In this document: positions 8,593 through 57,455 of the stretch, one piece after another
Layout of the letters: every line of letters starts with the position of its first letter
Position numbering within the stretch: position 1 is the stretch's first letter
Origin: Gammaproteobacteria bacterium
GTDB taxonomy: Bacteria; Pseudomonadota; Gammaproteobacteria; Steroidobacterales; Rariloculaceae
Length of the DNA stretch: 64,000 bases
NCBI GenBank assembly: GCA_036381015.1
Contig: DASVDR010000029.1
Span: 96,676-160,675 of the forward strand
Reading direction: 5' to 3'
Program-made: the position numbers and the translations under genes
Notes under the pieces: generated by a model
Seen by the model: only the letters and a program-made list of their open reading frames with translations
Database searches by the model: none
Told to the model about the DNA's origin: nothing

Positions 8593-8628
8593 TAGGGAGA
8601 AACGCTCCATCAGCGGAAGGACCTATTC

Positions 8629-9570: not shown

Positions 9571-9593
9571 ATCACGCACCGGAGGAGCCGTCC

Positions 9594-10717: not shown

Positions 10718-10734
10718 ACGCGAAGGAGGCGCTC

Positions 10735-17752: not shown

Positions 17753-17796
17753 ACGCCACAATAGGCTTACGGACTGTCCGTCCGGGGAGAGCCGCC

Positions 17797-21839: not shown

Positions 21840-23060
21840 CTACTTCGGCGTAACGCGATACATCCCGCCCGGATTGGCGTCCTCGAGCAGCCATACCGCC
21901 CCGTCCGGCGCGACGGCGACGTCGCGAATCCGATGACCCACGTCCCAGCGCTCCGCGGGCGCGGCGCCGCCCTTTCCGTCGAACGTCACGCGGTTGAGCG
22001 TTTGACTGCCCAGTCCGCCGATGAGCGCCGAGCCGCGCCACTCGGGAAACAAGTTGCCCGTGTAGAAAGCGAGGTTGCCCGGCGCGATGACGGGCGCCCA
22101 ATAGATGACCGGCTTCGCAAGATCCGGCCGCGAATCCGGGCTCGGGATCGGCACGCCGTTGTAGTTGCGGCCGTATGAGACGAGCGGCCAGCCGTAGTTC
22201 TTGCCGGGCTTGATGAGGTTCAGCTCGTCGCCGCCGCGCGGGCCGTGCTCGACTTCCCAAAGCCGGCCGTCGGGCGCGAACGCAAGACCGTAGGGCGTGC
22301 GGTGCCCGCTGGTCCAGATTTCCGCCGGGGCGAGGTTCGGCGACGGAAACGTGTAGGTGCTGACCACGGGGGCGGTCTTTGCCGCTTCCGTATCCCTCGG
22401 GGGCTCGATCAGCGTGACGCTCGCGGCGCCCGTCTTGCCTTCGCCCGGATTGCCCGGCGCGGGCTTGCCGTCGAGCGTGAGGTGCAGGATCTTGCCGAGC
22501 GCTTGATCGGGATCCTGAGCGGGCGTCATGCGCTGGCGCTCGCCGACCGTCAAAAACAGACTTTCGCCGTCGGGCGAAAACGCGATCTGACCGCCGAATT
22601 GACCGCCCCTGCCTTTCGGCATTTGGCGCCAAAGCACCTGCAACCCTTCGAGGCTCGCGGCGTCATCGGTCAGCGAGAGCCGGGCGCGCGCGAGCGCGAG
22701 GCTCGAGCCGCCGTCTCCGGGCTCCGCGTAGGTCAAGTAGATGGAGTGATCGGTCGCATAGTGCGGCGATGTGAAGACGCCGAGCATGCCGCCCTGTCCC
22801 TGATAGAGGACGGCCGGCACGTTCGTCACCGGCGTCTTCTCGCCCTCCTGGGTGACGAGCCAGAGCGGGCCCACCTTCTCGGTAACGAGCATCCGTCCAT
22901 CGGGCAGGAACGCGATGCGCCACGGCAGATTGAACGTCGCGACCTGTGTCATCGTAAACGGCAGGCTCGGCTCGGGCTTCTGCTCGCCGGCATTGATCTG
23001 CGCGTGCGCCGAAGACCAGGCGAGCATCGAAAGAAAGGCCGCGCACGAAAGAGTCTTCAT
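21840..23060 (-). CDS. PQQ-dependent soluble sugar (aldose/sorbosone) dehydrogenase family, secreted
   Basis: Signal peptide. PWRIAFLPDGRMLVTEK, GGMLGV, GGQIAFSPDG, LGKILHLTLDG, SGHRTPYGLAF, EHGPRGGDELN, GKNYGWP. Confidence 0.85.
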   Translation of the reverse strand: MKTLSCAAFLSMLAWSSAHAQINAGEQKPEPSLPFTMTQVATFNLPWRIAFLPDGRMLVTEKVGPLWLVTQEGEKTPVTNVPAVLYQGQGGMLGVFTSPHYATDHSIYLTYAEPGDGGSSLALARARLSLTDDAASLEGLQVLWRQMPKGRGGQFGGQIAFSPDGESLFLTVGERQRMTPAQDPDQALGKILHLTLDGKPAPGNPGEGKTGAASVTLIEPPRDTEAAKTAPVVSTYTFPSPNLAPAEIWTSGHRTPYGLAFAPDGRLWEVEHGPRGGDELNLIKPGKNYGWPLVSYGRNYNGVPIPSPDSRPDLAKPVIYWAPVIAPGNLAFYTGNLFPEWRGSALIGGLGSQTLNRVTFDGKGGAAPAERWDVGHRIRDVAVAPDGAVWLLEDANPGGMYRVTPK

Positions 23061-31683: not shown

Positions 31684-33402
31684 TCAGAACGTGCCGCACT
31701 CCGCCTGGCGACTGCAGAGCTCCTCGAGCAGCTTCATCGTCTCCGGGAACGGATCGGCCGGCGGCACGAGGATCTCCGGCTCGTAGCGCCCGGCCGCAAG
31801 ATCCATCGGCGTTAGACCGTCGCGGCCGGCGACCTTGAGCTTCGCGCCGTGGTCGAACAGGAACTGCACGACCTTGTTCCAGCCGTTGCGGGCGGCGCCA
31901 TGGATCGCTGCGCGGCCGTCGGGCGGCACGTAACTGTAGATGTACCGCTGGTTCCCGTGGGTGATGCGGACGTGCATCAGGAAGTTGTCCTTGCCGGGCG
32001 GCGGAATGCGGCCGAACGAGACGGTGCGGCGATTCACGTCCGCGCCGGCCTCGAGCAGGACCTTCAACGTCTCGATGCGGTCCTCCTCGGTCGCGTCCTG
32101 GCCGCGGGTGGCGCGAATGCCGAACCCGACGCCCGCGGCGGCCATGAACGGCGTGACGCCGTACTGGTTCGGCAGCTCGGCGATCGCGCCGTGCTCGAGC
32201 AGCAGACGCACGACCTCGGTGTCGCCCGCCCGCGCGGCGCGGAGCAGCGGCGTGGCGCCCGTGGAGAGCATGACGTCCGTGCCGCGCTCGAAGACCGCGT
32301 CCCGAAACTGCGGCCGGTGCTTCAGCTGGATATTCGGATCCGCGCCGCGGTCGAGCAACAGACGAATCAGGTCCATTGCGTCCGTCTCGTCGCCGTGCAG
32401 CAGCGCGTTGCGCGCGTTGCTCGGCGGCGTGTGCAGATCCACGGCGTGGTAGAGCGGCGTGCGGCCGGCGAAGTCCCACTTGTTAACGTCCGCGCCGGCC
32501 TCGATCAGCGCCTTCGCGAAGTCGAAGTGGCCGTTGTAGATTGCGAGATTCAACGGCGTGGTGCGGTCCGGGTCCGTGATGTCGATGTCCGCGCCCGCGT
32601 CGAGCAGCGGTGCGATGCAAGCGACGCAGCCCTCGCGCGCGGCGTAGTGCAACGCCGCGAAGCCGCCGTCGTGCATGTCCTTCTTGCGCGGCTCGGCCGT
32701 CACGCGCCGCTGCCAGTTGCGCTCCTTGCCGCGCATGTTCGGATCGGCACCGTTCTCGAGGAGCATCGCGACCATCTCGGGGTGGCGTTGCGCGGCTGCC
32801 CACATCAGCGCGGTTTGCCCGCCCCAGCTTTCCACCGCGTTCGGGCGTGCGCCGTGCTCGAGCAGTAACGCCGCGGCATCGAGGTTCCCGGCGCGCGCGA
32901 CGACCATCAGCGGCGTTTGCCCCTCGGCGTTCGCCGCGTTCGCGTCGACGCCCGCCGCGAGCAGGATCTCGAGGATCGGCACGGAGCCGACCAGCGCCGC
33001 TTCCGCGATCGGCGTGGCGCCGAAATCGTTCACGACGTCGGCCTGCGCGCCGGCTTCGAGCAGCGCGCGCGCGAGCTCCACCTCCCCGTAGTGTGCGGCC
33101 CAATGCAGCGCCGTGGTGCCGTTCGCCGCGGCGGCGTTCACGTCCGCGCCCGACTCGATCAGCGCGAGCGCATCGGCGATCCGTTGCTCGCGCGCGGCTT
33201 CGACGAGTGGCGGCGCGGTGCCGGGGGCCGGGAGCGTGTCCGCGAACGCGCCGCCCGACGGGAGTGACGCGAGCACGAGCAGCGCGCAGAAGATCTCGCG
33301 GCGCACACGCGCTGCCGTGGCGCGTATCCGCGCGGCCCCTTGGGATGCCGCGGCGCTTCGCGTCGCGCGGAGACCGGCGGCGGCTGCGCCCCGTCGCGGC
33401 AC
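31684..33402 (-). CDS. Secreted ankyrin-repeat protein
   Basis: More than 8 ANK repeats (G.TALHWAA..G....LLL..GADVN). Hydrophobic signal ..IFCALLVLASLPSGGAFA. GTG start with GGAGA upstream. Lies 10 nt after the DUF1552 gene. Confidence 0.85.
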   Translation of the reverse strand: MPRRGAAAAGLRATRSAAASQGAARIRATAARVRREIFCALLVLASLPSGGAFADTLPAPGTAPPLVEAAREQRIADALALIESGADVNAAAANGTTALHWAAHYGEVELARALLEAGAQADVVNDFGATPIAEAALVGSVPILEILLAAGVDANAANAEGQTPLMVVARAGNLDAAALLLEHGARPNAVESWGGQTALMWAAAQRHPEMVAMLLENGADPNMRGKERNWQRRVTAEPRKKDMHDGGFAALHYAAREGCVACIAPLLDAGADIDITDPDRTTPLNLAIYNGHFDFAKALIEAGADVNKWDFAGRTPLYHAVDLHTPPSNARNALLHGDETDAMDLIRLLLDRGADPNIQLKHRPQFRDAVFERGTDVMLSTGATPLLRAARAGDTEVVRLLLEHGAIAELPNQYGVTPFMAAAGVGFGIRATRGQDATEEDRIETLKVLLEAGADVNRRTVSFGRIPPPGKDNFLMHVRITHGNQRYIYSYVPPDGRAAIHGAARNGWNKVVQFLFDHGAKLKVAGRDGLTPMDLAAGRYEPEILVPPADPFPETMKLLEELCSRQAECGTF

Positions 33403-33412
33403 GCCCGGTCTC

Positions 33413-34726
33413 CTAGACTTCCGCGAGCTCGCCCGTGCTGTCCCCGAACGACTCGATCGGCACGCCGGCGCGGAGCAGCAGCGTCAGGAGCAGGTTCGCG
33501 AGCGGTGTGTTCCGGGGATAGACGAGGTGCTGGCCCCCGCGAATCGTGCCGCCGCCGAGCCCGAGCACCGCCGACGGCAGCGGATCGTTGTTGTGCAGGT
33601 CGCTGTTCGACATGTTGCTGCCGTAGAGCAGGATGGCGTTGTCGAGCACCGAGCCTTCGGCCTCCGGCATCGCGTCGAGCTTCGCGAGGAACTCCGCGAA
33701 GATCTCGCTGTGGTAGGTCTGGATGCTCTGCAGCTTGTCGAGCTTGCCGGGATCCTCGCCGTGATGCGAGAGCGGGTGGAAGGCTTCCGAGATGCCGAGG
33801 TGCGTGTAAGCCTTCATGCTCGCTTCGGCCGCCATCATGTAGTTCCCGATGCGCGTGATGTCGCCCTGGTATGCCAGCGCGAGCAGATCGAACAGCAGCG
33901 TCTGCTGCTCACGGAAATCGGGCGGCACTCCGAGCGGCACCGGCGGCAGCTCGAGATCGGAAAGATCCTGCTCCTTGATCTTCTGCACGCGGCGCTCGAC
34001 CTCGCGCACCGAGTCGAGGTAGGTGTCGAGCCGCGCGACGTCGCTGCGTCCGAGCCGGCCGCGGAGGTCGGCGGCGCTTTCGAGCGCGAAGTCGAGGACG
34101 GAGCCCGTCTCGTCGATGATCGCCGCCCGCTCCTCGGGGCTCGCGCCTTCGCCGAACAGCTTGAAGAAGAGCTTGCGCGGGTTGAATTCCATCGGCAGCC
34201 CTTGCGTGGGCGTGCGGAAGGAGATCGTGTTGCCGAACATGTTCCCGGACGCGCCGGCCGGCCCGGCCTTGCCTTCGGCCGCGATCTCGATGGACGGGAA
34301 CGGCGTGCTCTGCCCGATATGCCGTGCGGCGATCTGGTCGCAGGTCGTGCCGCCTTCCGCGGCGCCCGGCGGTGCACAGCGCAGCCACGTGCCCGGAATG
34401 ATGCCGTGAGGGTCCGGGCTTTCGGCCGGCTTGTTGCGCAGATACGAGACGACCGTGAGACGGTCCTTGAACGGCTCGAGCGGCTTCAGAATCGGCGACA
34501 GCTCGAAGCTCTTGCCTTCGCCCTTCGGCGTCCAGCGGTCGTCGCCTTCTAGCAGGATCGCGCCATGCGGGAAGTAGAAAAAGCCCATGCGGAGCGCCGA
34601 CGCCTCGGCCGCCTCGGCGCGCGTCGCCATTGCGGGCAGCATGGCTTCGAGGAAGGGCAGTGCGATGCCGACGCCGGCGCCTCGCAGGACGGTTCGTCGA
34701 GAGAGACGCTTCTTGCTGATGAACAT
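33413..34726 (-). CDS. DUF1552-family protein (Tat-like signal)
   Basis: MFISKKRLSRRTVLRGAGVGIALPFLEAM.., FYFPHG, ..LLYGSNMSNSDLHNNDPLP..LGGG are characteristic of DUF1552. Start moved to the ATG with AAGGAG upstream (track start 34747). Confidence 0.85.
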   Translation of the reverse strand: MFISKKRLSRRTVLRGAGVGIALPFLEAMLPAMATRAEAAEASALRMGFFYFPHGAILLEGDDRWTPKGEGKSFELSPILKPLEPFKDRLTVVSYLRNKPAESPDPHGIIPGTWLRCAPPGAAEGGTTCDQIAARHIGQSTPFPSIEIAAEGKAGPAGASGNMFGNTISFRTPTQGLPMEFNPRKLFFKLFGEGASPEERAAIIDETGSVLDFALESAADLRGRLGRSDVARLDTYLDSVREVERRVQKIKEQDLSDLELPPVPLGVPPDFREQQTLLFDLLALAYQGDITRIGNYMMAAEASMKAYTHLGISEAFHPLSHHGEDPGKLDKLQSIQTYHSEIFAEFLAKLDAMPEAEGSVLDNAILLYGSNMSNSDLHNNDPLPSAVLGLGGGTIRGGQHLVYPRNTPLANLLLTLLLRAGVPIESFGDSTGELAEV

Positions 34727-34774
34727 GGCCCCCGGCTCCTTATCCATCGGCGGTCTTTCGAGCGCCCTGCGGGC

Positions 34775-39485: not shown

Positions 39486-41114
39486 ATGATCACGCGATTC
39501 GCTCGCCCAAGCATATATGCTCTTGTAGGCACGACTATCTTTCTATTGGTATTGGCCCCGCGGACAGGCAGCGCGCAGCTCGCGGAGTGCCAGCAAATCG
39601 ACCAGGGACTGCTGATCGACGCGCCCGGCGGCTGCATTTCGAGGCCGCTGCGGGACCAAATCGGCCCCGGTCAAGGCGGCGTCGTGACCCCGGGCTCGTC
39701 GATCTACCTGATCAAGCGCGATCCCGCGCGCGCTATTCGCAGAGGACGGCAAGTTTTTCAGCGCAAGTTCACTGCAAGCGAGGGCCTGGGCCCGCGCGTC
39801 AGCTTTACTTCCGAAGGCGACGTGACGGCGACGCGCGCGCTCGGCGCGGGACTGGCGGACAGTTGCGCGGCATGCCACGGACGGCCGAGGGGTGCCGCCG
39901 GAAACGGCGGCGACGTCGCCACGTTTCCGGACAGCCGTGACGCGCCGCACCTTTTCGGACTCGGGCTCATCGAGATGCTGGCCGACGAGATGACCGCGGA
40001 TTTACGCGCGATTCGCGACGACGCCCTGGCCGCGGCCGCAGGCAAACGACGTGCCCCCGTCAGGCGGGAGCTCGTCAGCAAGGGCGTCGACTTCGGTGCG
40101 ATCACCGCGTTCCCGAACGGCCGCGTCGACACATCCAAGGTGGAAGGCGTCAGCGCCGATCTGCGAGTCCGCCCCTTCTTTGCCGAAGGCCGCTCGGCGT
40201 CGATTCGGGAGTTCGTGATCGGCGCGTTCAACGACGAGATGGGGCTTCAAGTGTGGGACCCGATCCTGTGTGACGCGACCGATCCGGACGAGCCCCAAGC
40301 GCGCGAAAGCCCGGCCGGATTCGTCTTCGATCCGGCAACGGACACCTTCAACCGGCCGCCGAGCTGCGATCGTATCGAAGACCCCGATGCGGACGGCGTT
40401 TCCGGGGAAGTGGATCCCGCTCTGGTGGACTATCTCGAGTTCTACTTCTTGAACTACTTCAAACCGGCGCGCTACCGGAGCACGGCGCGAGCCGAACAAG
40501 GGCTCGAGCTCATGAAGAGCATCGGATGTACGTCCTGCCACGTCCAGAATCTGACGATCGAGCGCGACCGGCGTATCGCCGACGTGGTGACGACCTATGA
40601 TCCTTCCCGCGGCTTCTTCAACGAGCTGTTTGCGGAGGTCTATCCGCTGATGGTGGAGGAGGACGACGGGGAGCCTTACCCGCAAATGGTGCCTGCTCTG
40701 CAAGAGTTCGTCGTCGAGAACGTGTTCACCGACTTGAAGCGTCACGATCTCGGCCCGTACTTCGTCGAGAGAGACTACGACGGTTCACGCATCGAGGCCC
40801 ACGTTACCGAGCCCTTGTGGGGCGTGGGCAACACGGCTCCATACGGTCACGACGGACGCAGCGTGACTCTCGATGCCGTCATCCGCAGGCATCGGGGCGA
40901 GGCCGCGGCCGTCACCGATGCCTATCTCGCGCTCAGCGACGACGATCAGGCGAAGATCGTGGATTTCCTCGAAACCTTGATCATCTTCCCGCCCGAGGAC
41001 ACGGCTTCGAATCTGAATCCCGGAACAGGGGAAGGGGACGTGCAGCAGCCGGAGAGCCACGGCAGCCTCGATCTCGGAGTGCTGTTCCAGAACGATTCCG
41101 ATGGGCCGGAATAG
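39486..41114 (+). CDS. Dihaem oxidoreductase/peroxidase-like protein (DUF1111 family), secreted
   Basis: Signal peptide. CAACH and CTSCH haem motifs. ..PLWGVGNTAPYGHDGRS.TLD..I..H.GEA typical of DUF1111. Confidence 0.85.
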   Translation: MITRFARPSIYALVGTTIFLLVLAPRTGSAQLAECQQIDQGLLIDAPGGCISRPLRDQIGPGQGGVVTPGSSIYLIKRDPARAIRRGRQVFQRKFTASEGLGPRVSFTSEGDVTATRALGAGLADSCAACHGRPRGAAGNGGDVATFPDSRDAPHLFGLGLIEMLADEMTADLRAIRDDALAAAAGKRRAPVRRELVSKGVDFGAITAFPNGRVDTSKVEGVSADLRVRPFFAEGRSASIREFVIGAFNDEMGLQVWDPILCDATDPDEPQARESPAGFVFDPATDTFNRPPSCDRIEDPDADGVSGEVDPALVDYLEFYFLNYFKPARYRSTARAEQGLELMKSIGCTSCHVQNLTIERDRRIADVVTTYDPSRGFFNELFAEVYPLMVEEDDGEPYPQMVPALQEFVVENVFTDLKRHDLGPYFVERDYDGSRIEAHVTEPLWGVGNTAPYGHDGRSVTLDAVIRRHRGEAAAVTDAYLALSDDDQAKIVDFLETLIIFPPEDTASNLNPGTGEGDVQQPESHGSLDLGVLFQNDSDGPE

Positions 41115-41206: not shown

Positions 41207-41794
41207 TCAGATCTTCGTTTCTGCTCGCGGCGCGATGACCCAAGAGCAGAGCGTCGTCGGCTCGCCGGGATAGGCGGTGAGGGCGGCCTGCGACGAACGG
41301 AAGTCGTGCCCCCGCGTGCGCGGGCCGGCGACGACCGCTTCGGCGAGCACGGCCGTCCAGCCCCGCCCCGCGGCCGCGAGCTCGTGCGCGAGGTCGGGAG
41401 CCGCGGTGCGGAGGACCCGGTGCGCCGCGGCTCCGCTGCCGTTCGGCTCGTGCTCGGCTTCGAAGACCACGCGAAGACCGTGCTCCCAGGCGAGGCGCTC
41501 GAGCACGAACAGCGCGGGCCGCTCGGTGAGGCCCGCGACGGCGCGGGGACCGGCCTTCCAGCGCGCGAGCAGCTCGTGCTGCCAGAGATCCGTGACGTCG
41601 CCTTCGATCGCGCGGAGCGGCGCACCGAGGAGCGCGGCGCGCGCGCCGAACTCGCGGGCTTCCGGGTGGCGCGAGTCGTAGACGACGGCCTCGAGCGCCG
41701 CCAGCTCGCGTCCCTCGGCGAACGCCGCTCGGCCCGCAAGAGGCGTGGCGGACAATGCCGCCGCGGTGCATAGGAATTCCCGCCTGTTCGTCAC
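41207..41794 (-). CDS. Tat-signal protein, function unknown
   Basis: MTNRREFLCTAAALSATPLAGRAAFA. 195 aa. Divergent from the AraC gene. Confidence 0.55.
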   Translation of the reverse strand: MTNRREFLCTAAALSATPLAGRAAFAEGRELAALEAVVYDSRHPEAREFGARAALLGAPLRAIEGDVTDLWQHELLARWKAGPRAVAGLTERPALFVLERLAWEHGLRVVFEAEHEPNGSGAAAHRVLRTAAPDLAHELAAAGRGWTAVLAEAVVAGPRTRGHDFRSSQAALTAYPGEPTTLCSWVIAPRAETKI

Positions 41795-42138
41795 GACGCG
41801 CTCCCCTCGGCCGTGGGCCTGGCGCGCTCAGGCTCTCACGGCCGCGCCTCGAAGATCAAGTCGAACGGCGTTTCGAGCACACGCCGAAACCGCGTGAAGC
41901 CTGCGCGGATCAGACCGAGCGCAGGCACGCGTCGCCCGCCTGCGCGCCGAGCGCGAGAGCGACTTTCTGCGCGAGGGAGCGCGGGTTCCGATGGCTTGCA
42001 GCCGCACGGAGTGTCCGTGCACTATCAGCGCGTGAGCTTTGCCGTGCGGCGCGGCGTTTGCTCGGTCGGCCGCGCGGCGCGTGCCGATCGATCGGCCGCG
42101 AGACTTGGCGCATCCACCGACAGAGACGGACGCGAGCC

Positions 42139-43122
42139 ATGGACGCCCTCTCCGAGCTGCTCCGCGCCGTGAAGCTTTCCGGCGCCATGTTCTACGTCGC
42201 CGAGTGCTCGAAGCCCTGGCGGGTGCTCGCGCCGCCGGGCCACAAGCTCGGGCGATACGTGGCCCCGAACGCGAGCCATGTGATCGAGTTCCATCTCGCG
42301 ACGCTCGGCTCGGGCTACGTCCGAGTCGACGACGAGACCACGCCGTTTTCCGCGGGCGATCTGTTCATGATTCCGCACGGGGACGAGCACGAGATGGGCA
42401 ACGGCTCGGACGCCGAGCTCGTCGATGCCTCCGTCACTCTGCCGGCGCTGCTCACCGGCGACACGATCCGGTCGCGTTTCGGCGGCGGGGGAGAGGAGAC
42501 GCACCTCGTTTGCGGCTACCTCGCGTGCGAAGCCGCGCTCATTCGGCCCGTGCTCGCCGGATTGCCGCGCGTCGTGCGCGTGCATCTTCGCAACGACCGC
42601 GCGGGCGAATGGCTCGAGAACTCGATCGTGCATGCCGTCGAGCGGGCGGCGGCCGCGGCGCCGGGCAGTGACGTGATCCTCGCGCGGCTCGCGGAGGTGC
42701 TGTTCGCCGAGGCGCTTCAGCGGTACGTCGTGCAGGTTTCGCCGGGCCGCAGCGGCTGGCTCGCGGGCGCGCTCGACCCGGCCGTTGGACGGAGCCTCGC
42801 GGCGCTCCATCGCCGGCCCTCGCACGCATGGACGCTCGACGAGCTGGCCCAGGAAGCCGCCATCTCTCGGTCCGCGTTGACGGAACGGTTCGCGCGCTAT
42901 CTCGGCCAGTCGCCGATGGCGTATCTCGCGGATTGGCGGCTCGAGCTGGGCGCGGAAGCGTTGCGCACGACGAGCCGCAGCGTGCTGCAGATCGCGACCG
43001 AGGTCGGCTACGAGTCCGAGGCCGCCTTCAACCGGGCGTTCAAGCGCCGCTTCGGCAAGCCGCCTGCGCAATATCGTCGCGCCGCGAGGGAGCAGCGCAA
43101 GGCGTTGGCGCGGTCCGCGTAG
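42139..43122 (+). CDS. AraC-family transcriptional regulator with N-terminal cupin domain
   Basis: MDALSELLRAVKLSGAMFY.. (Cupin_6-type). C-terminal HTH ..WTLDELAQEAAISRSALTERF..GQSPMAYL..WRL..A...L......V..IA.EVGYESEAAFNRAFKR.FG.PP..YR. Confidence 0.9.
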   Translation: MDALSELLRAVKLSGAMFYVAECSKPWRVLAPPGHKLGRYVAPNASHVIEFHLATLGSGYVRVDDETTPFSAGDLFMIPHGDEHEMGNGSDAELVDASVTLPALLTGDTIRSRFGGGGEETHLVCGYLACEAALIRPVLAGLPRVVRVHLRNDRAGEWLENSIVHAVERAAAAAPGSDVILARLAEVLFAEALQRYVVQVSPGRSGWLAGALDPAVGRSLAALHRRPSHAWTLDELAQEAAISRSALTERFARYLGQSPMAYLADWRLELGAEALRTTSRSVLQIATEVGYESEAAFNRAFKRRFGKPPAQYRRAAREQRKALARSA

Positions 43123-43138
43123 TCGCGTGACACTGTCC

Positions 43139-43168
43139 GAGAACAACGGAGAACAACGGAGAACAACC
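43139..43168 (+). repeat. Three perfect tandem 10-bp repeats (GAGAACAACG/G/C) abutting the start codon of the VOC gene
   Basis: GAGAACAACG GAGAACAACG GAGAACAACC, then ATG at 43169. The repeat junctions form SD-like GGAG at two points within the array. Confidence 0.9.
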
Positions 43169-43651
43169 ATGCAACGAACGATGACGGCGGTCCTGGGGCT
43201 CACTGCGGCGATTTGGCTCGGTGCGGCTCACGCGGACACCACGGTGCTCGCGGTGCGGCTCGGCGCCGACGATGTCCCCGCGCTCGCGAAGTTCTACGAA
43301 ACCGCCTTCGGGTTGAAGGAGATCGACCACGTCGGGGACCCGCCGACCGAGATCATCATGCGCTACGGCGACACCGTCGCCGCGGCGAAGGCCGGCTCGT
43401 CGCCGGAATTTCTCGTCGCTCGACGCGAAGCCGGCGCGAAGCCAGGCGAGATCGCGCACGCGATCTTTCGCGTTTCGGACATCGCCGCCGCAGTGGCGGC
43501 CGCGAAGGCCGCCGGCGCCACGGTGAATGGCGACGTGGTTTCGGTCCCGATCGGCGGCACGCCGATCAAGATCGCGACGATGGTCGACCCGCAGGGCAAC
43601 GTGCTCGAGATCATGGAGCTGCCGGACGGACTCGACCACCTCCCGCACTGA
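43169..43651 (+). CDS. Secreted VOC (glyoxalase/bleomycin-resistance fold) family protein
   Basis: Inner ATG MQRTMTAVLGLTAAIWLGAAHA (signal). FYETAFGLKE ... ATMVDPQGNVLEIME. Confidence 0.7.
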   Translation: MQRTMTAVLGLTAAIWLGAAHADTTVLAVRLGADDVPALAKFYETAFGLKEIDHVGDPPTEIIMRYGDTVAAAKAGSSPEFLVARREAGAKPGEIAHAIFRVSDIAAAVAAAKAAGATVNGDVVSVPIGGTPIKIATMVDPQGNVLEIMELPDGLDHLPH

Positions 43652-43787
43652 AGGCGCGCCGCGCCGAGCGGCGGCTCGCCGCGATCGGGATCCTCCTCGC
43701 TCGCTGACGAGGCCGAAAAGCTCGTCTAAGATAGGCCGATAAGCGCCTCGGGCAACGAAACGGCGCATTTGCACGAGGGGGGATTCG

Positions 43788-45716
43788 ATGATCCATGGCG
43801 CGCGCAGCGGCGTGTGGGCCCATACGCTGCTGCTGCTTGCAGGCTCCGCAACGTCCGCGGCGCAGGCCCAGCCCCTGGTCGGCCGCACGGCAACGCCGCC
43901 CGATATCGTCGGGGAATGGCAGCTCGAGGGCAGCGAGGATCGGGGCGCGGTGGGCAGCCTCCAGCCGAACCCTCAGGATTACCTCGGGATTCCGTTCAAC
44001 GATGCAGGCCGCATGCGCTCCGACACGACGGCCGAATCGATCTGGGGCACGCCGGAATATCAGTGCCGCCCGCATTCCGCTCCGCATCAGTGGCGAGGGC
44101 TCGGCGGCGCGCGCATCTTGAGCGAGCTCGACCCGTTGACGCGCGAGGTCCGGGCCTATCACTTCCAGTTCTGGCGTTCGCTGGACCGACCGGTGTTCAT
44201 GGACGGCCGCCCCCATCCGCCGCCTTGGGCGCCGCACAGCTGGAGCGGCTTTTCGACCGGAGAGTGGGTCGGTAACACGCTCGTGATCAGGACGACGCAC
44301 CTGAAGGACGGGTTTCTGAGGCGCGGCGGCCCGCAGACCAGCGACATGCTGACGATGACCGAATACCTCACGCGGCATGACGACATGCTCACCATCGTCC
44401 AAGTAACGGACGACCCCGTCTACCTGGAAGAGCCGATGGTGCTGTCGACGATCTATCTCTACGCTCCGGACAGCCGGGTCAATCTGGAGCTCTGCAATGC
44501 CGGCACGTTCGCCGAGTCCGGCGGGACGAATCCTCATTTCGTCCCGCATCTGCTGCCGGGCCAGGACTTGCTGGTCCACGACTGGCTGCCGAACGAGCCG
44601 TGGGTGCCGTTCGATGCGGTGCGCGGCGGCGCGAAGACGATTTATCCGGAATACCGGCGCGTGCTCGACGGATCGACGACGGTCGACGCGCTCGAAGTGC
44701 CGGTGTCCGCCCCCGAGATCACGGCTCGGGCGAAGATCGATGCCCAGAGCCCTCGGGACGGTCAGGTTCACGTGATGCCCGTGCAGGGCAATATCTACAT
44801 GGTCATCGCCGACGGCAGGAATCTCGCCGTATCCGTGGGTCCGGACGGCATGATGCTTGTGAACACGGGACCGGCCGAGATGGGCGAGAAGCTCAAGAAA
44901 ACGCTGTCGGAGCTCGCGGCGCGAACCGCCGCGCCGGCGCCGAATCGGTGTTTCGGCCTGGAATGCCCGAACGTCCCGAGCGGCTTCACGAGCCCGTACA
45001 TGAATACCGTGATCAGCTCGCCGGCCCCGCCCAGACCGTTGCGGTACATCATCAACACAAACGCCGCGCCGCACAACGTCGGCGGCAACGCCTTGCTGGC
45101 GCCGGAAGGGATGGGGCGCGACGGCGGCGCAAGGATCATCGCTCACGAGAACACGCTGATCACGATGTCCGGGCCGGCAGACGATCCGTGGTCGACGAAT
45201 TTCGAGGCCTGGCCGACCGAGTCCTTTTACAGCGACATCTACAAGATGACGTCCTATTTCAACGGCGAACCCGTGATCGCCTACTCGACGCCCGCGACGA
45301 CCGACGGCGACATCATCGTCTTCTTCCGCCATTCCGAGGTCATCGCCGCCGGCGACATCTTTTCCACTGTCGAATACCCTCGCTTCGATCTGTCCCGAGG
45401 CGGCAGCATCCAGGGCGTCATCGACGGTCTCAACGCCATCCTCGACCTGGCCGTGGCGGAGTACCGCTCTCAAGGCGGCACCTGGATCATTCCCGGCAGA
45501 GGCAGGCTCTCCGACACGGCGGACGTGGCGTCGTATCGCAACATGGTGCAGATCATCCACGACCGCATAAAGGCGCTGATCGACGAGGGGATGACGCTGG
45601 AGGAAGTGCTCGCCGCGCGGCCGACGTACGACTTCGACGCACGTTACGGCACCGACAGCGGCGACTGGACCACGGCCATGTTCGTGGAAGCGGTTTACCG
45701 CAGTCTCAGCAACTGA
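43788..45716 (+). CDS. Secreted fusion protein: N-terminal recurring unknown domain plus C-terminal MBL-fold domain lacking the canonical metal ligands
   Basis: Signal ..LLLLAGSATSAAQA. N-domain ..STGEWVGNTLVIRTTHLKDG...MTEYLTRHDDMLTIVQVTDDPVYLEEP. C-domain is homologous to the 56334..57260 MBL, but HxHxDH reads NTNAAPHNVGGN and AHTDGD reads ATTDGD. Confidence 0.75.
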   Translation: MIHGARSGVWAHTLLLLAGSATSAAQAQPLVGRTATPPDIVGEWQLEGSEDRGAVGSLQPNPQDYLGIPFNDAGRMRSDTTAESIWGTPEYQCRPHSAPHQWRGLGGARILSELDPLTREVRAYHFQFWRSLDRPVFMDGRPHPPPWAPHSWSGFSTGEWVGNTLVIRTTHLKDGFLRRGGPQTSDMLTMTEYLTRHDDMLTIVQVTDDPVYLEEPMVLSTIYLYAPDSRVNLELCNAGTFAESGGTNPHFVPHLLPGQDLLVHDWLPNEPWVPFDAVRGGAKTIYPEYRRVLDGSTTVDALEVPVSAPEITARAKIDAQSPRDGQVHVMPVQGNIYMVIADGRNLAVSVGPDGMMLVNTGPAEMGEKLKKTLSELAARTAAPAPNRCFGLECPNVPSGFTSPYMNTVISSPAPPRPLRYIINTNAAPHNVGGNALLAPEGMGRDGGARIIAHENTLITMSGPADDPWSTNFEAWPTESFYSDIYKMTSYFNGEPVIAYSTPATTDGDIIVFFRHSEVIAAGDIFSTVEYPRFDLSRGGSIQGVIDGLNAILDLAVAEYRSQGGTWIIPGRGRLSDTADVASYRNMVQIIHDRIKALIDEGMTLEEVLAARPTYDFDARYGTDSGDWTTAMFVEAVYRSLSN

Positions 45717-45788
45717 CGTGAAATCAGGGACGCTTCGATCGAGGGGCCCGCGCCAGGGAGACCACATTCGATTCGTGAGGACGATGTC

Positions 45789-46190
45789 ATGCGACCGAGC
45801 ATTGCCTTGCTGACCCTGGCCGCCTCGAGCCTGCTTTCGAGCGGGCAGGCGAACGCCCACCATTCCTATGCCGCCACGTACGACGTATCCCGAACCGTGC
45901 GGCTCGAGGGCCGGCTCGTGCGCTTCGAATACCGCAGCCCGCACTCCTATCTGCACTTGGTCGTGAAGGGTGAGGACGGTGAAACGCAGCGCTGGGCCGT
46001 CGAATGGGCCGCGCCGAGCTCGCTGGTCCGACAAGGCGTCTCGCGCGATACGCTGCGCACCGGGGACGAGCTCATCGTGGTCGCCCGGCCGTCGCGCGCG
46101 CAGGGCGAGTTTCGCAGCCTGATGCTGACGCTGGAGCGCCCCGCCGACGGGCTCAAATGGGGCACGAATCCCGACGAAGTGGTGGACTGA
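45789..46190 (+). CDS. Small secreted protein, DUF6152-like (mature N-terminus His-His)
   Basis: Signal ..SSGQANA followed by HHSYAATYD. 133 aa. Family name is from memory of similar 'AHHS' proteins and is not verified. Confidence 0.6.
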   Translation: MRPSIALLTLAASSLLSSGQANAHHSYAATYDVSRTVRLEGRLVRFEYRSPHSYLHLVVKGEDGETQRWAVEWAAPSSLVRQGVSRDTLRTGDELIVVARPSRAQGEFRSLMLTLERPADGLKWGTNPDEVVD

Positions 46191-46192
46191 TC

Positions 46193-46921
46193 GTGTCGGC
46201 AGTCGTGAAGCTCGGCTTCGGCTTCGTCGCAGCGATCGGCGCGAGCACGAATCTCGCGCTGGCGCAGCCCGGCGAGACCGCGGGAACGGCCCGCGAATCG
46301 GCCCCGATCGATCTCACCGGATACTGGGTCTCGGTGGTCTTCGAAGACTGGAAATACCGCATGGTCACACCGAGTCCCGGTATCTTCGACGGCATACCGC
46401 TCAACGCCGACGGCCGAAATGTCGGCGAAGCCTGGGATCCGGAAGCCGACGAGGCGGCAGGCGATGCGTGCAAGGCGTACGGCGCGCCGGCCATCATGCG
46501 TCTGCCCGGTCGCTTCCGCATCAGCTGGGAAGACGACCAGACGCTGCGGATCGACACCGACAACGGCGAGCAGACTCGCCTGTTGCACTTCACGGAAACT
46601 TCCGCGGGCGCACCGACGCGTCAGGGCCGTTCGTTCGCGGAGTGGCAACCGGCGCCCGGCGGCACGGGCGGCAGCTTGAAAGTGACGACCGACAATCTGC
46701 TACCGGGCTACATACGCAAGAACGGCGCTCCGTACAGCGAGCTCACGACGATGACGGAGTACTACGACCTGCATACGCTCCCGAACGGCGACATTTACCT
46801 CACGATCACGACGCGGGTCACGGACCCGCGGTATTTCCGCGGCCCGGCAATGACCAGCACCGACCTGCGCAAGCTGCCGGACGACCGGGGCTGGAACCCG
46901 ACGCCCTGCACCGGGCGCTAG
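46193..46921 (+). CDS. Secreted protein of unknown function (third copy of the recurring domain)
   Basis: GTG start 2 nt after the upstream stop. Signal VKLGFGFVAAIGASTNLALAQP. ..GGSLKVTTDNLLPGYIRKNGAPYSELTTMTEYYDL....ITTRVTDPRYF. Confidence 0.6.
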   Translation: MSAVVKLGFGFVAAIGASTNLALAQPGETAGTARESAPIDLTGYWVSVVFEDWKYRMVTPSPGIFDGIPLNADGRNVGEAWDPEADEAAGDACKAYGAPAIMRLPGRFRISWEDDQTLRIDTDNGEQTRLLHFTETSAGAPTRQGRSFAEWQPAPGGTGGSLKVTTDNLLPGYIRKNGAPYSELTTMTEYYDLHTLPNGDIYLTITTRVTDPRYFRGPAMTSTDLRKLPDDRGWNPTPCTGR

Positions 46922-53923: not shown

Positions 53924-56350
53924 TCAGATCGCCGAGCGTTCGGGCTCGCCGGCCTCGTCGGCGACGGTTTCGGCCGCGGGCGGCACCTCCAGCATCCTGA
54001 ACGCATCGCTCTTCACGATGCCGCGGACCAATGCCGAAAAGCGGTAGCGGTCGCGCGCCGCGTCGTCGACGATCCGGCGCACCGTCGGCATGTCGTAGTA
54101 CTCGAGCGAGCGGCCGAGCGCGTAGGTCATCAGCTCCTCGGTGATGGTCCAAACGATTCGCTCCGGATCTTCGAGGAGCGCCCGGCGCAGCTCGTCCGGC
54201 CCCACGATCTCCTTGCCGCCGATCAGCTTCCCGCTCGCGTCGATCGGCTCGCGGGCGCGCTTGTCGTAGTCCTGCCATTCGCCGATCGCGTCGAAGTTCT
54301 CGAGCGTCAAGCCGAGCGGGTCCATGACCGCATGGCAGGAAGCGCAGACCGCGTCCGCACGATGCTGCTCGAGCCGCTCGCGGACCGTGCGCGGCTCGGG
54401 GCCTGTGTCCTCGACGAGATCCGTGTCGACGCCGGGCGGCGGCGGGGACGGCGGCGAGCCGATCAGGTTCTCGAGGATCCACTTGCCCCGAATCACGGGG
54501 GCCGTGCGATTCGGATACGACGTCGCCATCAGGATCGCGCCCTTGCCGAGCAGGCCGAAACGCGCCGAGCTCTCGAGCTCGACGCGGCGGAACTGATCGC
54601 CGCGCACCGCGGGCAGCCCGTAGAGATGCGCGATCGTCTCGTTGACGAAGGTGTGATCCGCCGTCATCAGGTCGAGGACGCTCCGGTCCTCGAGCAGGAT
54701 GCTCGCGAGGAAGAGCTCGAGCTCGTGCTTGTAGGCTTCGCGGGGATCGGGCGTGGCCTGCGGGAAGATGCCGCGGTCCGGCACGACGTCGTCGAGCTTG
54801 TCCACGTCGAGCCACTGGAACGCGAAGCTCGTGACGAGCGAACGGGCGCGCTCGTCGGCGAGCATGCGCTCGATCTGCGCGTCGAGGACCTCGGGCTCGC
54901 CGAGCCGCCCTTGCTCGGCGACGCGGAGAAGCTCGTCGTCGGGGATGCTGCTCCAGAGGAAGAACGAGAGACGCGACGCGAGCTCGAGATCCGACAGCTC
55001 GTAGATCGAGCCCGGAGGCAGATCCTCGGACGGAGACGCGAAGCGGAACAGGAAATCCGGGCTCGCGAGAATCGCGGTAACGGCTTTGCGGATGCCCGTC
55101 TCGAAGCCGCCCGACGCGGCGCCGCCGCGATAGAACGCGAGCAGCTTGTCGAGGTCGTGCTTGCCGACCGGGCGGCGGTACGCGAGCCGGGCGAGCCGCC
55201 CGAGAATCTCGCGCGCACAGCTCTCCGCCGTCTCGGCGCCCGCATCGGGACCGACATGGCAGCTGAAGATCTTGCGGCGGGACGGCGTCTCGCTCACGCC
55301 GCTCGGATGGAACGGGCCCTGGAGCTCGAACGAGCTCACGCGCAGGATGCGGTCCTGGCCGCCGCCGGGCGCCGCGAGCTGAAGCCGATCGTCGGATTCC
55401 GCGAAGGTGCGCGCGAGGAACGTGACGCCGACCTGATGCGGACCCGCCGTGGCCTCGAAGCGGATGTTCTTCAGGCGTTGATTGATGCGGTCGACGGCCG
55501 ATTGGCCGTGCTGGTCGATCGCCTTCTGGTCCTCCTCGCCGCCGATCGTCGTGCGGTAGACCTCTCGCCCGTCGAGCGTGACGAGCACCGTGTTCTCGAA
55601 CTCCATGTTGTAGACCCAGAGCGCCTGGGCCATGTCCGCGACGTTGATGACGTACTCGCCGTCGGCGGGGAAGTCGTGCATTACCGCCAGCCCGCCGCGC
55701 GTGCCGAGCGGCAGCCCTTCGATGTGACGCTTGTAGGATCCCGCGTCGCCGTCGTTGACGTAAGTCGTGCTGCCGGGCGGCGCATCCGGATTGCCGACGG
55801 CTTCGATCGCGACCGTGCGAGCGGCTGCGACGTACTGCTCCATGAACGTCGGCGAGATCGTCAGGACCGAAGCGTTGTTGTCGAAGCCGCTCTTCTTGTT
55901 GTCGGGCGGAAGGAGCTCCGTGGCATCGACGTCGACGCCGAGGAGATCCCGCACGGCATTCTCGTATTCGGTGCGGTTCAAACGACGCAGGCCGACGAAG
56001 CCCGGGTGGGGCCCGGAGGCTTCGGCCTCCTCGGCGAGCCGATGCTCGAGCGCGGCGACGAAGGCGGCCTTTTGCTCGGGAGACGGCTGCGGGCGGTCCG
56101 GCGGCGGCATCAAGTTGCCGCGGAACTTGCGCAGGACTTTCTCCCAGACGGCGGCATCGGCGCCGACGTTCTCGGGGCTCATCTCCTCGAGGACGAGGCC
56201 GCCGGTGCGGTCGATCGAATTGTGGCAGTCGACGCAGTAGGTTTCGACGAGGCCCCACTGCTCGGCCACCGATCCCGGGCCCCGGGAGCAGGCGGCAAGG
56301 GCGAGAGAGCCGATGAGGACGGCGACTCCTTGTCTATACGTCCGGTGCAT
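53924..56350 (-). CDS. Haem-binding DUF1592/DUF1595/DUF1587/DUF1588/DUF1585-type lipoprotein
   Basis: Lipobox LALAAC. CVDCHN haem motif. LRRLNRTEYENAVRDLLG. C-terminal CASCHAVMDPLG, typical of this 'planctomycete cytochrome' family. Confidence 0.85.
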   Translation of the reverse strand: MHRTYRQGVAVLIGSLALAACSRGPGSVAEQWGLVETYCVDCHNSIDRTGGLVLEEMSPENVGADAAVWEKVLRKFRGNLMPPPDRPQPSPEQKAAFVAALEHRLAEEAEASGPHPGFVGLRRLNRTEYENAVRDLLGVDVDATELLPPDNKKSGFDNNASVLTISPTFMEQYVAAARTVAIEAVGNPDAPPGSTTYVNDGDAGSYKRHIEGLPLGTRGGLAVMHDFPADGEYVINVADMAQALWVYNMEFENTVLVTLDGREVYRTTIGGEEDQKAIDQHGQSAVDRINQRLKNIRFEATAGPHQVGVTFLARTFAESDDRLQLAAPGGGQDRILRVSSFELQGPFHPSGVSETPSRRKIFSCHVGPDAGAETAESCAREILGRLARLAYRRPVGKHDLDKLLAFYRGGAASGGFETGIRKAVTAILASPDFLFRFASPSEDLPPGSIYELSDLELASRLSFFLWSSIPDDELLRVAEQGRLGEPEVLDAQIERMLADERARSLVTSFAFQWLDVDKLDDVVPDRGIFPQATPDPREAYKHELELFLASILLEDRSVLDLMTADHTFVNETIAHLYGLPAVRGDQFRRVELESSARFGLLGKGAILMATSYPNRTAPVIRGKWILENLIGSPPSPPPPGVDTDLVEDTGPEPRTVRERLEQHRADAVCASCHAVMDPLGLTLENFDAIGEWQDYDKRAREPIDASGKLIGGKEIVGPDELRRALLEDPERIVWTITEELMTYALGRSLEYYDMPTVRRIVDDAARDRYRFSALVRGIVKSDAFRMLEVPPAAETVADEAGEPERSAI

Positions 56351-57260
56351 AGAAGCCCCACAGGCTCTGAAACGCGAGAGTCACGAACTCGTCCCGCTGC
56401 GGCCACTCGGGATGATAGTCACGTGTCGGCTGCGCCGCGACCGCTTCGGCCGGGCTCAGCCCCTTGAAAAGCAGCTCGTCGCGGAAGCGCACGAAGAGCT
56501 GGGCGTACATGTCGCGCTGCGCTACGAGGTCCGTGCGGCGCAACACCGGCCCTTCGGACGGCACGATGATCGTGTCGTCTTTCGCGATCTGGAGCAGCGT
56601 CTCGATGCCCTCGACGAGGCCGCCGAACCAGCCGCCGGTCCACCAGTCGATCAGGGGCCAGCGGTCGCCGGCGATCACGCCGCCGCACGCGAGAACGTTC
56701 GCGTCCGGGAAGAAGACGTAGCAGTCCCCGTCGGTATGGGCCTGAAGCATGTACCCGCATTCGAACGGCACGTCGCCGAGGTCGAGCTCGCGGCTCGATT
56801 CGTAGAAGGAGAGCTTGGGGCGTGCGTCGGGCGGAAGCGGCTCGTGCACGAAGTCTTCCCAAGGCCGCTTGATGTCGGTGCCGAGCCAGAGACGCGTGTT
56901 GGCCTGAGCGACGATCCGCGCGCCGGTGCGGGCGACGGAAGCGTTCGCGCCGGTTTGCTCCGGGTGCCAATGCGTGTTGACGAGAGTGCGGACCGGACGG
57001 CCGTCGAAGCGGGCCGCGACGGTCGCGAGCAGGGCTTCGGCATGCTCGGCGAGACCGCCGTCGACCATGACGATGCCGTCTCCGTCGGCCGCGGCGACGA
57101 TGTTCGCGCCGGCCCCGGCGATCAGCACGGTTCCTGCGCGGAGCGCCGTCACGTCGAGCTTCGCGGCGCCGGCCTGCCCGCGCGCGAGCGGAGGCAGCGC
57201 GGACGCGAGCGCGCCGTAGACTGCGCCCCGAATCAATGTTCTTCGGCTGAGGCTTTGCAT
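56334..57260 (-). CDS. Tat-exported MBL-fold protein with variant metal motif (HWHPEQ)
   Basis: MQSLSRRTLIRGAVYGALA. ..LVNTHWHPEQTGAN.. (HxHxEQ in place of HxHxDH). ..AHTDGD... 17-nt overlap with the DUF1592-type gene start. Confidence 0.8.
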   Translation of the reverse strand: MQSLSRRTLIRGAVYGALASALPPLARGQAGAAKLDVTALRAGTVLIAGAGANIVAAADGDGIVMVDGGLAEHAEALLATVAARFDGRPVRTLVNTHWHPEQTGANASVARTGARIVAQANTRLWLGTDIKRPWEDFVHEPLPPDARPKLSFYESSRELDLGDVPFECGYMLQAHTDGDCYVFFPDANVLACGGVIAGDRWPLIDWWTGGWFGGLVEGIETLLQIAKDDTIIVPSEGPVLRRTDLVAQRDMYAQLFVRFRDELLFKGLSPAEAVAAQPTRDYHPEWPQRDEFVTLAFQSLWGFYAPDV

Positions 57261-57455
57261 TTCTCGAGGCGAAACGCCGCGGCTCCCGCGCGGCGCGCTC
57301 CTTACCATCATAGGGATTCGCTCGGGCCAGGCAAACCCGCGAGAACGCAGGACTCGGGATCGCGCGCGAGCGCGCGATCCTGCGCGAAATGCTTCCAGGC
57401 CTCGACGATGCGTCATGTAACATGCTCGACGCGTTTCCGCCTGGGCTTCTTACGA

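Follow-up and report, generated by a model that had tools for sequence, protein, structure and literature searches.

An exported three-gene unit of uncultured bacteria combining DUF6152, a putative calycin-like barrel and a metallo-beta-lactamase fold without its canonical zinc ligands

CusF and SilF are periplasmic Cu(I)/Ag(I) chaperones with an OB fold, the CusF site being made of internal His, Met, Met and Trp residues, and ZinT/YodA is an exported periplasmic calycin-like barrel with a metal-binding His cluster that works alongside an uptake system. CPSF-100 and IntS9 are known inactive folds of the metallo-beta-lactamase (MBL) type. A conserved His exposed by cleavage of the leader has been described as a reliable flag for metal binding in a 2025 study, and metal binding was predicted and then proved for DUF4198 (which binds Ni and is encoded beside TonB receptors), for DUF6702 and for the 'anglerases' (PMC12537917). 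Small periplasmic cargo proteins with an Asp/Glu/Thr site and no conserved domain are found beside lanthanide TonB transporters, with PqqU-like receptors, and beside six-bladed pyrroloquinoline quinone (PQQ) dehydrogenases (bioRxiv 10.64898/2026.07.10.737718). The component folds and the general logic of the system described here (a receptor with accessory proteins, N-terminal-His sites, inactive MBL folds) have precedents among these proteins. It is a cluster of three genes in a 64,000-nucleotide stretch of DNA, hereafter the window (G+C about 67%), from a metagenome-assembled genome (MAG) of a gammaproteobacterium of the Rariloculaceae (GenBank assembly GCA_036381015.1, contig DASVDR010000029.1), and it encodes a barrel fused to an MBL fold (gene 1), a DUF6152 protein (gene 2) and a second barrel protein (gene 3; Table 1). 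These are three large families for which no solved structure or paper was found, and two of them have no Pfam model. No role has been described for them, and the families, their obligatory pairing and the triad are undescribed in the literature searched: a search on DUF6152 and PF19649 found no papers, and DUF6152 is not mentioned in the histidine-brace literature.

The open reading frames of genes 1-3 give the NCBI proteins residue for residue and at equal lengths, which bears out the cluster (43788-46921) proposed in an earlier reading of the bare sequence (the original prediction). Genes 2 and 3 are separated by 2 nucleotides (46191-46192), as that reading had stated, and genes 1 and 2 by 72, with a Shine-Dalgarno-like sequence at the start of each gene. 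A terminator scan found no terminator-like site in the gaps of the triad and two intragenic terminator-like matches, below the shuffled expectation; a promoter scan of the cluster region found no promoter-like site. The signal peptides that had been claimed for all three products were recognized as Sec-type leaders by heuristics, namely a hydrophobic core followed by an A-x-A site (AQA/QP in gene 1, ANA/HH in gene 2 and ALA/QP in gene 3, the slash marking predicted cleavage), and by the pattern of conservation, the N-terminal 25-30 residues being the sole unconserved part of each of the three family alignments. At the level of sequence, genes 1-3 are confirmed as a co-directional exported three-gene unit.

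The unit is conserved well beyond the window. A homolog scan with one genome per species returned 210 gene 1 relatives, of which the best 80 are described here; all 80 come from MAGs of uncultured organisms. The locus counts given below cover 79 loci, in which the genes were located with hidden Markov models of the three families. Most of the organisms are Acidobacteriota (Vicinamibacterales, Terriglobia, Bryobacterales, Solibacteraceae) and a few are Gammaproteobacteria (Candidatus Rariloculaceae, Nevskiaceae), so that the module is found almost only in uncultured members of the former phylum and a few of the latter class, often in several copies within a single genome. Two triads (L017 and L077) lie in MAGs labeled Bifidobacteriaceae and Acidimicrobiia, which are Gram-positive lineages; because the context is Sec-exported and receptor-linked, errors in binning are the most likely source of these labels. 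Nearly all 79 loci preserve the order gene 1, DUF6152, gene 3, and because this synteny holds across two phyla, co-transcription of the three genes is judged very likely. In about half of the cases the triad is without a further same-strand gene within 300-400 nucleotides, for which reason the unit is taken to be self-contained. Fortuitous adjacency, or a set of decaying genes that form no functional unit, could draw on a rearrangement in the window and on one truncated DUF6152 copy (both discussed below); however, the same gene order recurs in about 70 loci of two phyla, all three reading frames are unbroken and match those called by NCBI exactly, and the families are strongly conserved. Synteny and conservation refute this explanation, and we regard it as extremely improbable.

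Gene 2 belongs to DUF6152 (Pfam PF19649: 90.3 bits against a cutoff of 27, E=9e-26), a family of 11,514 clusters at 50% identity. Essentially all full-length members share a leader ending in A-x-A, two consecutive His residues directly after it, and an N/S-P-His motif 28 residues further on, at mature position 29. This pattern was checked in the triad subfamily, in the divergent DUF6152 proteins encoded at the loci and in representatives of the 150 top-ranking clusters among the 11,514. The window protein fits the hallmark (ANA/HHSY...RSPHS), and within the triad subfamily HHSYAATYD and P-H52-S are invariant and H56 is nearly so. An N-terminal His exposed by leader cleavage is thus predicted for DUF6152 from the A-x-A/H junction. 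In this respect the family is like DUF4198, DUF6702, the anglerases Ang-1 and Ang-2 ('signal strapping'; PMC12537917), LPMO, CopC and YcnI, in that a small exported protein has a Sec leader that ends directly before a conserved His and carries a second conserved His downstream; like DUF4198, it is in some loci encoded next to a TonB receptor. The beta-sandwich (Ig or FnIII-like) fold of histidine-brace proteins was not found. The AlphaFold2 model of gene 2 (mean pLDDT, a per-residue model score, 84.5) is a five-to-six-stranded barrel, and its best matches in a Foldseek search against the PDB were OB folds (SSB, the LysRS N-domain), all of them weak (E >=2.8e-3). Unlike the histidine-brace and other N-terminal-His proteins, DUF6152 has an OB-like model, two consecutive N-terminal His residues, no sequence similarity to them and a constant barrel partner, and its metal site is a predicted one. 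On the model, DUF6152 could work in a histidine-brace-like manner without belonging to those families. Like CusF and SilF, it would be a small periplasmic OB-fold protein that could carry metal between partners; unlike CusF, its proposed site is N-terminal, no CusCBA is encoded here, and CusF is absent from the top 50 Foldseek matches. The invariant His-His mature N-terminus makes metal binding cheaply and directly testable, and a DUF6152 protein with its native N-terminus could, if it bound metal, bring a new fold into the histidine-brace class of metalloproteins.

The constant partner of DUF6152 is a barrel domain. A same-strand barrel reading frame lies within 400 nucleotides of 68 of the 69 triad-type DUF6152 genes, and 32 of the 42 non-triad DUF6152 genes in the loci also have an adjacent barrel gene. 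Single-chain proteins made of a leader, an HH-DUF6152 domain and a barrel occur in eight loci (L048, L043, L054, L074, L071, L077, L065 and L083; Table 1); these fusions fall into at least two subfamilies and, in some loci that lack a separate gene 2, the fusion is placed after gene 3. In L001, an exported 576-residue protein (5793-7523) joins two VOC/glyoxalase modules with HHVH motifs to a barrel. Together, the pairing and the fusions indicate that DUF6152 plus barrel is the core unit and that the barrel is a module which attaches to metal-dependent folds. One library representative, P0383, apparently has the C-terminal end of a gene 3-type barrel ahead of a DUF6152 domain lacking His-His; it may be a frameshift or gene-call artefact and not a true fusion in reverse order.

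That a recurring domain is shared by genes 1 and 3 had been noticed from the sequence, and profile and translated searches agree: residues about 19-230 of gene 1, in its N-terminal barrel region, match gene 3 by tblastn (E=7e-12, 29.5% over 237 residues) and by hhalign (99.3%, E=5e-20), and the window holds a third, minus-strand copy, which is 37-38% identical to barrel proteins of L001. No consistent Pfam family was found for this domain in 21 gene 1 and 56 gene 3 homologs at E up to 5. For gene 3, more than 7657 homologs were found, all unnamed and without a Pfam domain, and the gene 3 product consists of a leader and a single barrel. The family has a conserved Cys pair and no invariant His, its invariant residues including many Arg, Lys, Asp, Glu and Trp. 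The AlphaFold2 model of gene 3 (pLDDT 82) is a long series of antiparallel strands whose best, weak, PDB matches in Foldseek are streptavidin/avidin barrels, which suggests that the domain is a calycin-type ligand-binding barrel. A comparison with ZinT/YodA can be drawn in that the barrel here, too, would be an exported calycin-type barrel with a His cluster beside an uptake system; unlike ZinT/YodA, for which no sequence or Foldseek match was seen, the present barrel has unrelated His positions and is fused to MBL, VOC or DUF6152. Further searches added little: no significant PDB match was obtained in sequence searches with gene 1 or with a profile of each of the three families, and an NCBIfam scan found no match for genes 2 and 3.

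Gene 1 has more than 1243 full-length homologs that are 61-89% identical to it. Its C-terminal half matches Pfam PF00753 below threshold (E=0.0093, 16.4 bits against a cutoff of 22.7), and a Pfam MBL match is obtained for 6 of 21 orthologs (best E=3.9e-4). NCBIfam likewise gives sub-threshold SoxH-like matches (E=5e-6, 26 bits against a cutoff of 280). A stand-alone MBL paralog encoded elsewhere in the window is found by BLASTP with gene 1 at E=5e-23, and membership of the C-terminal half in the MBL superfamily is solid by transitive homology. The superfamily, to whose fold the gene 1 half is homologous, includes the SoxH-like 'quinoprotein relay system' hydrolases (TIGR04558, TIGR04559). Unlike other superfamily members, gene 1 combines a probably periplasmic location, a fused barrel, a sub-cutoff Pfam score and invariant cleft loops. 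The paralog itself retains a three-His site (HWH, AHTDGD), its site-2 ligands being replaced by E-Q and E, and overlaps by 17 nucleotides the start of a DUF1592/DUF1588/PSD cytochrome-type gene (53924-56350, minus strand).

Mapping the MBL motifs through this paralog, the T-H-W-H-P-E-Q of the latter aligns with T-N-A-A-P-H-N in gene 1, and its PSEG with PGRG; the glyoxalase II motif T-H-x-H-x-D-H-x-G-G-N gives the same register. The readings N-x-A-x-H-N for the ligand motif and T for His in ATTDGD, made from the letters of the window alone, are upheld by the paralog alignment. In place of the H-x-H-x-D-H motif, gene 1 has N425, A427, H429 and N430, and at the positions of the motif 3 His, the motif 4 Asp or Cys and the motif 5 His it has T504, D523 and R571. 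The same positions were followed through an alignment of 194 non-redundant orthologs that share 51-89% identity with the window protein (Table 1). Because the former ligand positions are variable or replaced in these orthologs, the classical two-zinc site is shown to be lost across the gene 1 family, with the former ligand positions drifting.

Loss of the site has not been accompanied by relaxation of the domain. Mean column conservation is 0.77 for the MBL half versus 0.82 for the barrel, and 77 of the 317 columns of the MBL half reach 97% conservation or more. Among the invariant residues, N423, T424, G432 and N434, as well as H453, E454 and N455, belong to the loops where the ligands are normally found, as do T505, D506 and D508, A521 and G522, and P569, G572 and R573. 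Eleven His residues are 90-100% conserved (H96, H100, H125, H143, H150, H171, H197, H250, H254, H328 and H453), and nine of the eleven lie in the barrel and the start of the linker (the first 260 residues). Two Cys pairs, 93/236 and 388/393, are 98-100% conserved, the former being common to gene 3. Judged by this strong conservation, the MBL domain of gene 1 is not decaying. The product had been called 'probably a pseudo-enzyme or binding module'. The part of this view that concerns the site stands, since the canonical binuclear site is lost in 194 orthologs; pseudo-enzyme status is not established by it, given a conservation of 0.77 versus 0.82, invariant loops and 11 conserved His residues, with which gene 1 might possess another, complete set of metal ligands. 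Like CPSF-100 and IntS9, gene 1 has an MBL half without canonical ligands, and it offers a clean natural case of an MBL fold minus its zinc ligands whose cleft is still under strong selection.

The same evidence bears on the original prediction when it is taken at its word, so that gene 1 would be no more than a pseudo-enzyme or scaffold and the cluster would have a passive role, in binding or structure, without metal chemistry. All canonical MBL ligands are lost or variable, gene 3 has no invariant His, and the barrels resemble the ligand-binding avidin and lipocalin folds, as a passive set would have it. Against this explanation speak the His-His mature N-terminus, which is universal in DUF6152, the His cluster of gene 1 with its 90-100% conservation and the conserved loops of the MBL cleft, and we consider it improbable.

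A connection with TonB-dependent receptors was first proposed from a truncated copy of the His-His protein downstream of receptor #2. This copy is real: it retains the leader, AHHS and about 15 further similar residues before its frame diverges, and it is similar to the 'upstream' DUF6152 encoded ahead of gene 1 in L001 and L084. The gene that follows it (18045-18491) encodes a universal stress protein. The tie to receptors is in fact stronger than had been claimed. In L083, the order is receptor, gene 1 (80% identical to that of the window), DUF6152, gene 3 and GSDH, with gaps of at most 46 nucleotides; the receptor gene (4184-7135) abuts the triad, 46 nucleotides upstream, and is 77.6% identical to receptor #2 of the window. 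By blastn, L083 has in one contiguous stretch (4190-10265) the counterparts of window blocks 14800-17757 and 43862-46908, which are 26 kb apart in the window. From this contiguity, and from the stub at the break, it follows that a rearrangement in the window has split the receptor from the triad, and on the sequence comparison the rearrangement placed the triad behind the AraC and VOC genes. The missing C-terminal part of the stub was sought upstream of gene 1 and this location was rejected, no such fragment being found there. In L001, a nine-gene same-strand cluster consists of receptor, nitroreductase, barrel, VOC-barrel, DUF6152, gene 1, DUF6152, gene 3 and GSDH. Altogether, 19 of 79 loci have a receptor-like gene within 10 kb, and in 7 such a gene is the immediate same-strand neighbor. 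The receptors, of about 985 residues, were placed by NCBIfam in no substrate-specific subfamily. They therefore do not point to a particular cargo, and the idea that they are PqqU-like was rejected.

Two exported multicopper-oxidase/cupredoxin-like proteins (8629-9570 and 10714-11784, both plus strand) are encoded beside a GAF-domain sigma-54 activator (6930-8483, minus strand), between the operon of the third barrel copy with receptor #1 and receptor #2. A copper theme near the receptors of the window is possible.

Quinoproteins form a second recurrent association. Within 10 kb, GSDH-type six-bladed dehydrogenases occur in 10 of 79 loci and PQQ eight-bladed dehydrogenases in 9, and a GSDH or PQQ alcohol dehydrogenase gene stands directly beside the family genes in 8 of 79 loci, with L083 and L088 in addition. 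As a rough control, MacB and DUF1552 genes, which occur within 10 kb at about the same frequency, are never adjacent. In L088 (4440-12692), the order is a 260-residue protein, a 345-residue protein, DUF6152, a PQQ eight-bladed dehydrogenase, gene 1, DUF6152 and gene 3, the first DUF6152 gene and the dehydrogenase gene overlapping by 4 nucleotides. Quinoproteins as obligatory partners were nevertheless rejected, since they are adjacent in about 10% of loci and about half of the triads stand alone. The window itself has a GSDH-type six-bladed PQQ dehydrogenase gene (21840-23060, minus strand) after receptor #3, which recalls the receptor...GSDH arrangement of L083 without the triad; its product is only 34-35% identical to the GSDHs of L083 and L001.

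These associations raise the possibility that the module supplies quinoproteins with a cofactor or a hard metal, capturing receptor-delivered PQQ or Ca/lanthanide and loading GSDH-type or PQQ alcohol dehydrogenase apo-enzymes. The receptor-triad-GSDH contiguity in L083, the triad-GSDH contiguity in L001 and the 4-nucleotide overlap in L088 are in line with this idea; the invariant Arg, Lys and Trp residues of gene 3 would suit an aromatic polyanion, and the substitutions in the MBL cleft are mostly O-donors (N, S, T, D, E). Precedents are TonB-dependent import of PQQ by PqqU (PMC12124388) and the small periplasmic cargo proteins encoded beside lanthanide receptors. Like those lanthanide systems (bioRxiv 10.64898/2026.07.10.737718), the present one can be drawn as a proposed path from a receptor through a small exported protein to a quinoprotein, and the phyla overlap (Acidobacteria, Gammaproteobacteria); unlike the lanthanide cargo proteins, the small protein here is a DUF6152 with putative His ligands, and the receptors of about 985 residues have no assignable subfamily. 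Cofactor supply is disfavored by the frequency of quinoprotein genes (within 10 kb in about a quarter of loci, adjacent in about a tenth), by receptors matching no PqqU-like or other specific subfamily, by the family hallmark His being a poor ligand for lanthanides and calcium, and by the lack of an adjoining quinoprotein gene at the window triad. We give it a small probability.

We propose instead, tentatively and at somewhat less than an even chance, that the triad is a self-contained exported module built round the DUF6152-barrel pair, with an N-terminal-His metal site in DUF6152, barrels that bind cargo or a partner and a remodeled non-zinc MBL cleft, acting downstream of a TonB receptor. 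The three genes would form one operon whose products are exported, probably to the periplasm, where they may form a complex. Cleavage of the leader would expose His1-His2 of DUF6152, which together with the invariant His29 (N/S-P-H) would most likely form a 'histidine-brace-like' site for a transition metal. The barrels would act as ligand- or partner-binding modules, that of gene 1 with its own invariant His cluster. The MBL half of gene 1 would not be a two-zinc hydrolase; its remodeled, conserved cleft would provide either a surface for binding or a non-canonical site. The module would probably bind or transform a cargo imported by the receptor, in a metal-dependent way, and in some lineages this cargo might be handed to periplasmic PQQ dehydrogenases. 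With its barrel fusions and its ties to receptors and quinoproteins, the module gives a way to approach the handling of TonB imports by dominant soil bacteria.

Several observations weigh against this proposal. A receptor is adjacent in only about a tenth of loci and within 10 kb in about a quarter, and the window triad is 26 kb from receptor #2, the nearest receptor being 17 kb away. No recurrent metal-homeostasis genes (metal-responsive regulators, metal efflux or import pumps) were found near the loci, where the recurrent neighbors are of catabolic type: amidohydrolases, lactonase-like propellers, PQQ dehydrogenases, VOC, nitroreductase, SnoaL and SSF. The N-terminal segment of the gene 2 model is of only moderate confidence (pLDDT about 64), both fold assignments, OB and barrel, are weak (best Foldseek E=2.8e-3), and no member of the three families has been studied in the literature searched.

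The character of the neighborhood leads to the principal rival, a periplasmic catabolic or oxidative enzyme set, which we consider possible though unlikely. Here the receptor would import an organic substrate that the barrels bind, gene 1 would be active through its barrel His cluster or its remodeled MBL cleft, and DUF6152 would be a small copper redox partner or oxidase exchanging electrons with PQQ dehydrogenases, in analogy to the fungal pairing of LPMO with the PQQ-dependent AA12 pyranose dehydrogenase. The neighbors are rich in enzymes (VOC, amidohydrolases, lactonase-like propellers, nitroreductase, peptidase M1, SSF), the local AraC and MarR regulators are typical of catabolic operons, and a PQQ alcohol dehydrogenase or GSDH gene comes right after gene 3 or a DUF6152 gene in L001, L005, L018, L028, L083 and L088. 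Gene 1 has 11 conserved His residues and conserved MBL cleft loops, and the barrel is fused to two enzyme folds, VOC and MBL. Moreover, bacterial six-bladed PQQ enzymes have been tied to soil carbon uptake and compared with CcPDH (bioRxiv 10.64898/2026.07.10.737718). However, immediate neighbors are heterogeneous (kinases and peptidase M1 are also among them) and about half of the triads are alone; a catalytic motif is not recognizable; an identity of 50-89% across phyla and among paralogs of the same genome disfavors substrate diversification; and the OB fold is unknown as an oxidase scaffold.

A bolder form of the metal-site proposal, which we find rather unlikely, would make DUF6152 a large unrecognized OB family with an N-terminal His-His metal site, obligately paired with a non-Pfam barrel; the metal chemistry of gene 1 would have moved to the His-rich barrel or the remodeled cleft, and the whole would be a new periplasmic metalloenzyme or redox relay that, in uncultured Acidobacteriota of soil and Gammaproteobacteria of sediment, links TonB-dependent uptake with PQQ dehydrogenases. 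If true, such a relay would be a bacterial counterpart of the fungal partnership of LPMO and PQQ dehydrogenase.

Table 1. Coordinates of the features discussed. Positions are nucleotides of the window unless a residue or a locus handle is given; ligand counts are from the 194 gene 1 orthologs.
Feature	Position	Strand	Details
Gene 1	43788-45716	+	642 residues; HEX7081573.1 (NCBI: hypothetical)
Gene 1, parts (predicted)			Sec leader, residues 1-27; calycin-like barrel, about 36-245; linker; MBL-fold half, about 326-642
Gene 2	45789-46190	+	133 residues; HEX7081574.1 (NCBI: 'DUF6152 family protein')
Gene 2, features (predicted)			leader, residues 1-23; mature N-terminus His24-His25 at 45858-45863; Pro-His52-Ser at 45939-45947 (in S-P-H-S-Y-L-H); then His56
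Gene 3	46193-46921	+	242 residues; GTG start; HEX7081575.1 (NCBI: hypothetical)
Degenerate MBL motif 2, NTNAAPHNVGGN	45054-45089	+	residues 423-434; replaces T-H-x-H-x-D-H-x-G-G-N; aligned to paralog THWHPEQTGAN
ATTDGD	45294-45311	+	residues 503-508; T504 replaces the H196-equivalent ligand; aligned to paralog AHTDGD; D506 and D508 invariant
H116 equivalent	N425		S or N, never His
H118 equivalent	A427		A, S or D, never His
D120 equivalent	H429		E 81, D 74, H 30
H121 equivalent	N430		H 124 (64%), N 56 (29%)
H196 equivalent	T504		N 112, T 64 (N/T 91%), H 9
D221 equivalent	D523		N 80, D 76, S 35
H263 equivalent	R571		R 156 (80%), H 36
Stand-alone MBL paralog	56334-57416	-	Pfam Lactamase_B, E=1e-12, 48.9 bits; HWHPEQ, AHTDGD, PSEG; reference for mapping gene 1 motifs
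Third barrel copy	5648-6820	-	390 residues, exported; tblastn E=3e-5; no Pfam match
TonB-dependent receptor #1	2415-5414	-	third barrel copy (5648-6820, -) immediately upstream, co-directional
TonB-dependent receptor #2	14795-17752	+	Pfam Plug and barrel
TonB-dependent receptor #3	23140-26127	-	GSDH-type gene 79 nucleotides downstream
Truncated DUF6152 stub	17797-17988	+	leader, AHHS and about 15 further similar residues to about 17913; E=0.002 to 6e-6; frame then diverges
AraC-family regulator	41755-43122	+	Pfam Cupin_6 and HTH_18
Exported VOC/glyoxalase-fold protein	43127-43651	+	directly upstream of gene 1; Pfam Glyoxalase and Glyoxalase_6, E about 2e-9; with leader
DUF6152-barrel fusion	L048 7818-8852		
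DUF6152-barrel fusion	L043 12143-13315		
DUF6152-barrel fusion	L054 12715-13755		
DUF6152-barrel fusion	L074 12583-13617		
DUF6152-barrel fusion	L071 2490-3668		
DUF6152-barrel fusion	L077 10751-12289		
DUF6152-barrel fusion	L065 13794-15107		
DUF6152-barrel fusion	L083 14669-15799		

In the window, the cluster follows genes for a secreted VOC protein and an AraC regulator, as the original prediction had it and as Pfam matches at both genes agree, and a MarR gene converges on the triad from the downstream side. AraC and VOC were considered as conserved partners of the module and rejected, being not syntenic in L083, L001 or L084; DNA similarity to the closest relatives starts at 43754-43866, just upstream of or inside gene 1. 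Because these two neighbors are specific to the window genome, AraC control is not a conserved property of the module. The true start of the AraC gene is probably the ATG at 42139, from which the product would begin MDALSELL. Just upstream of the AraC gene are genes for a 195-residue protein with a twin-arginine-type leader and no Pfam match (41207-41794, minus strand) and for a di-haem oxidoreductase (DHOR/DUF1111-like; 39486-41114, plus strand). Elsewhere, the window holds a DUF1552 (HXXSHH) gene (33413-34747, minus strand) and a large ankyrin-repeat gene (31684-33402, minus strand); DUF1552 and ankyrin-repeat genes recur within 10 kb of Acidobacteriota triads, the ankyrin-repeat gene being directly adjacent twice.

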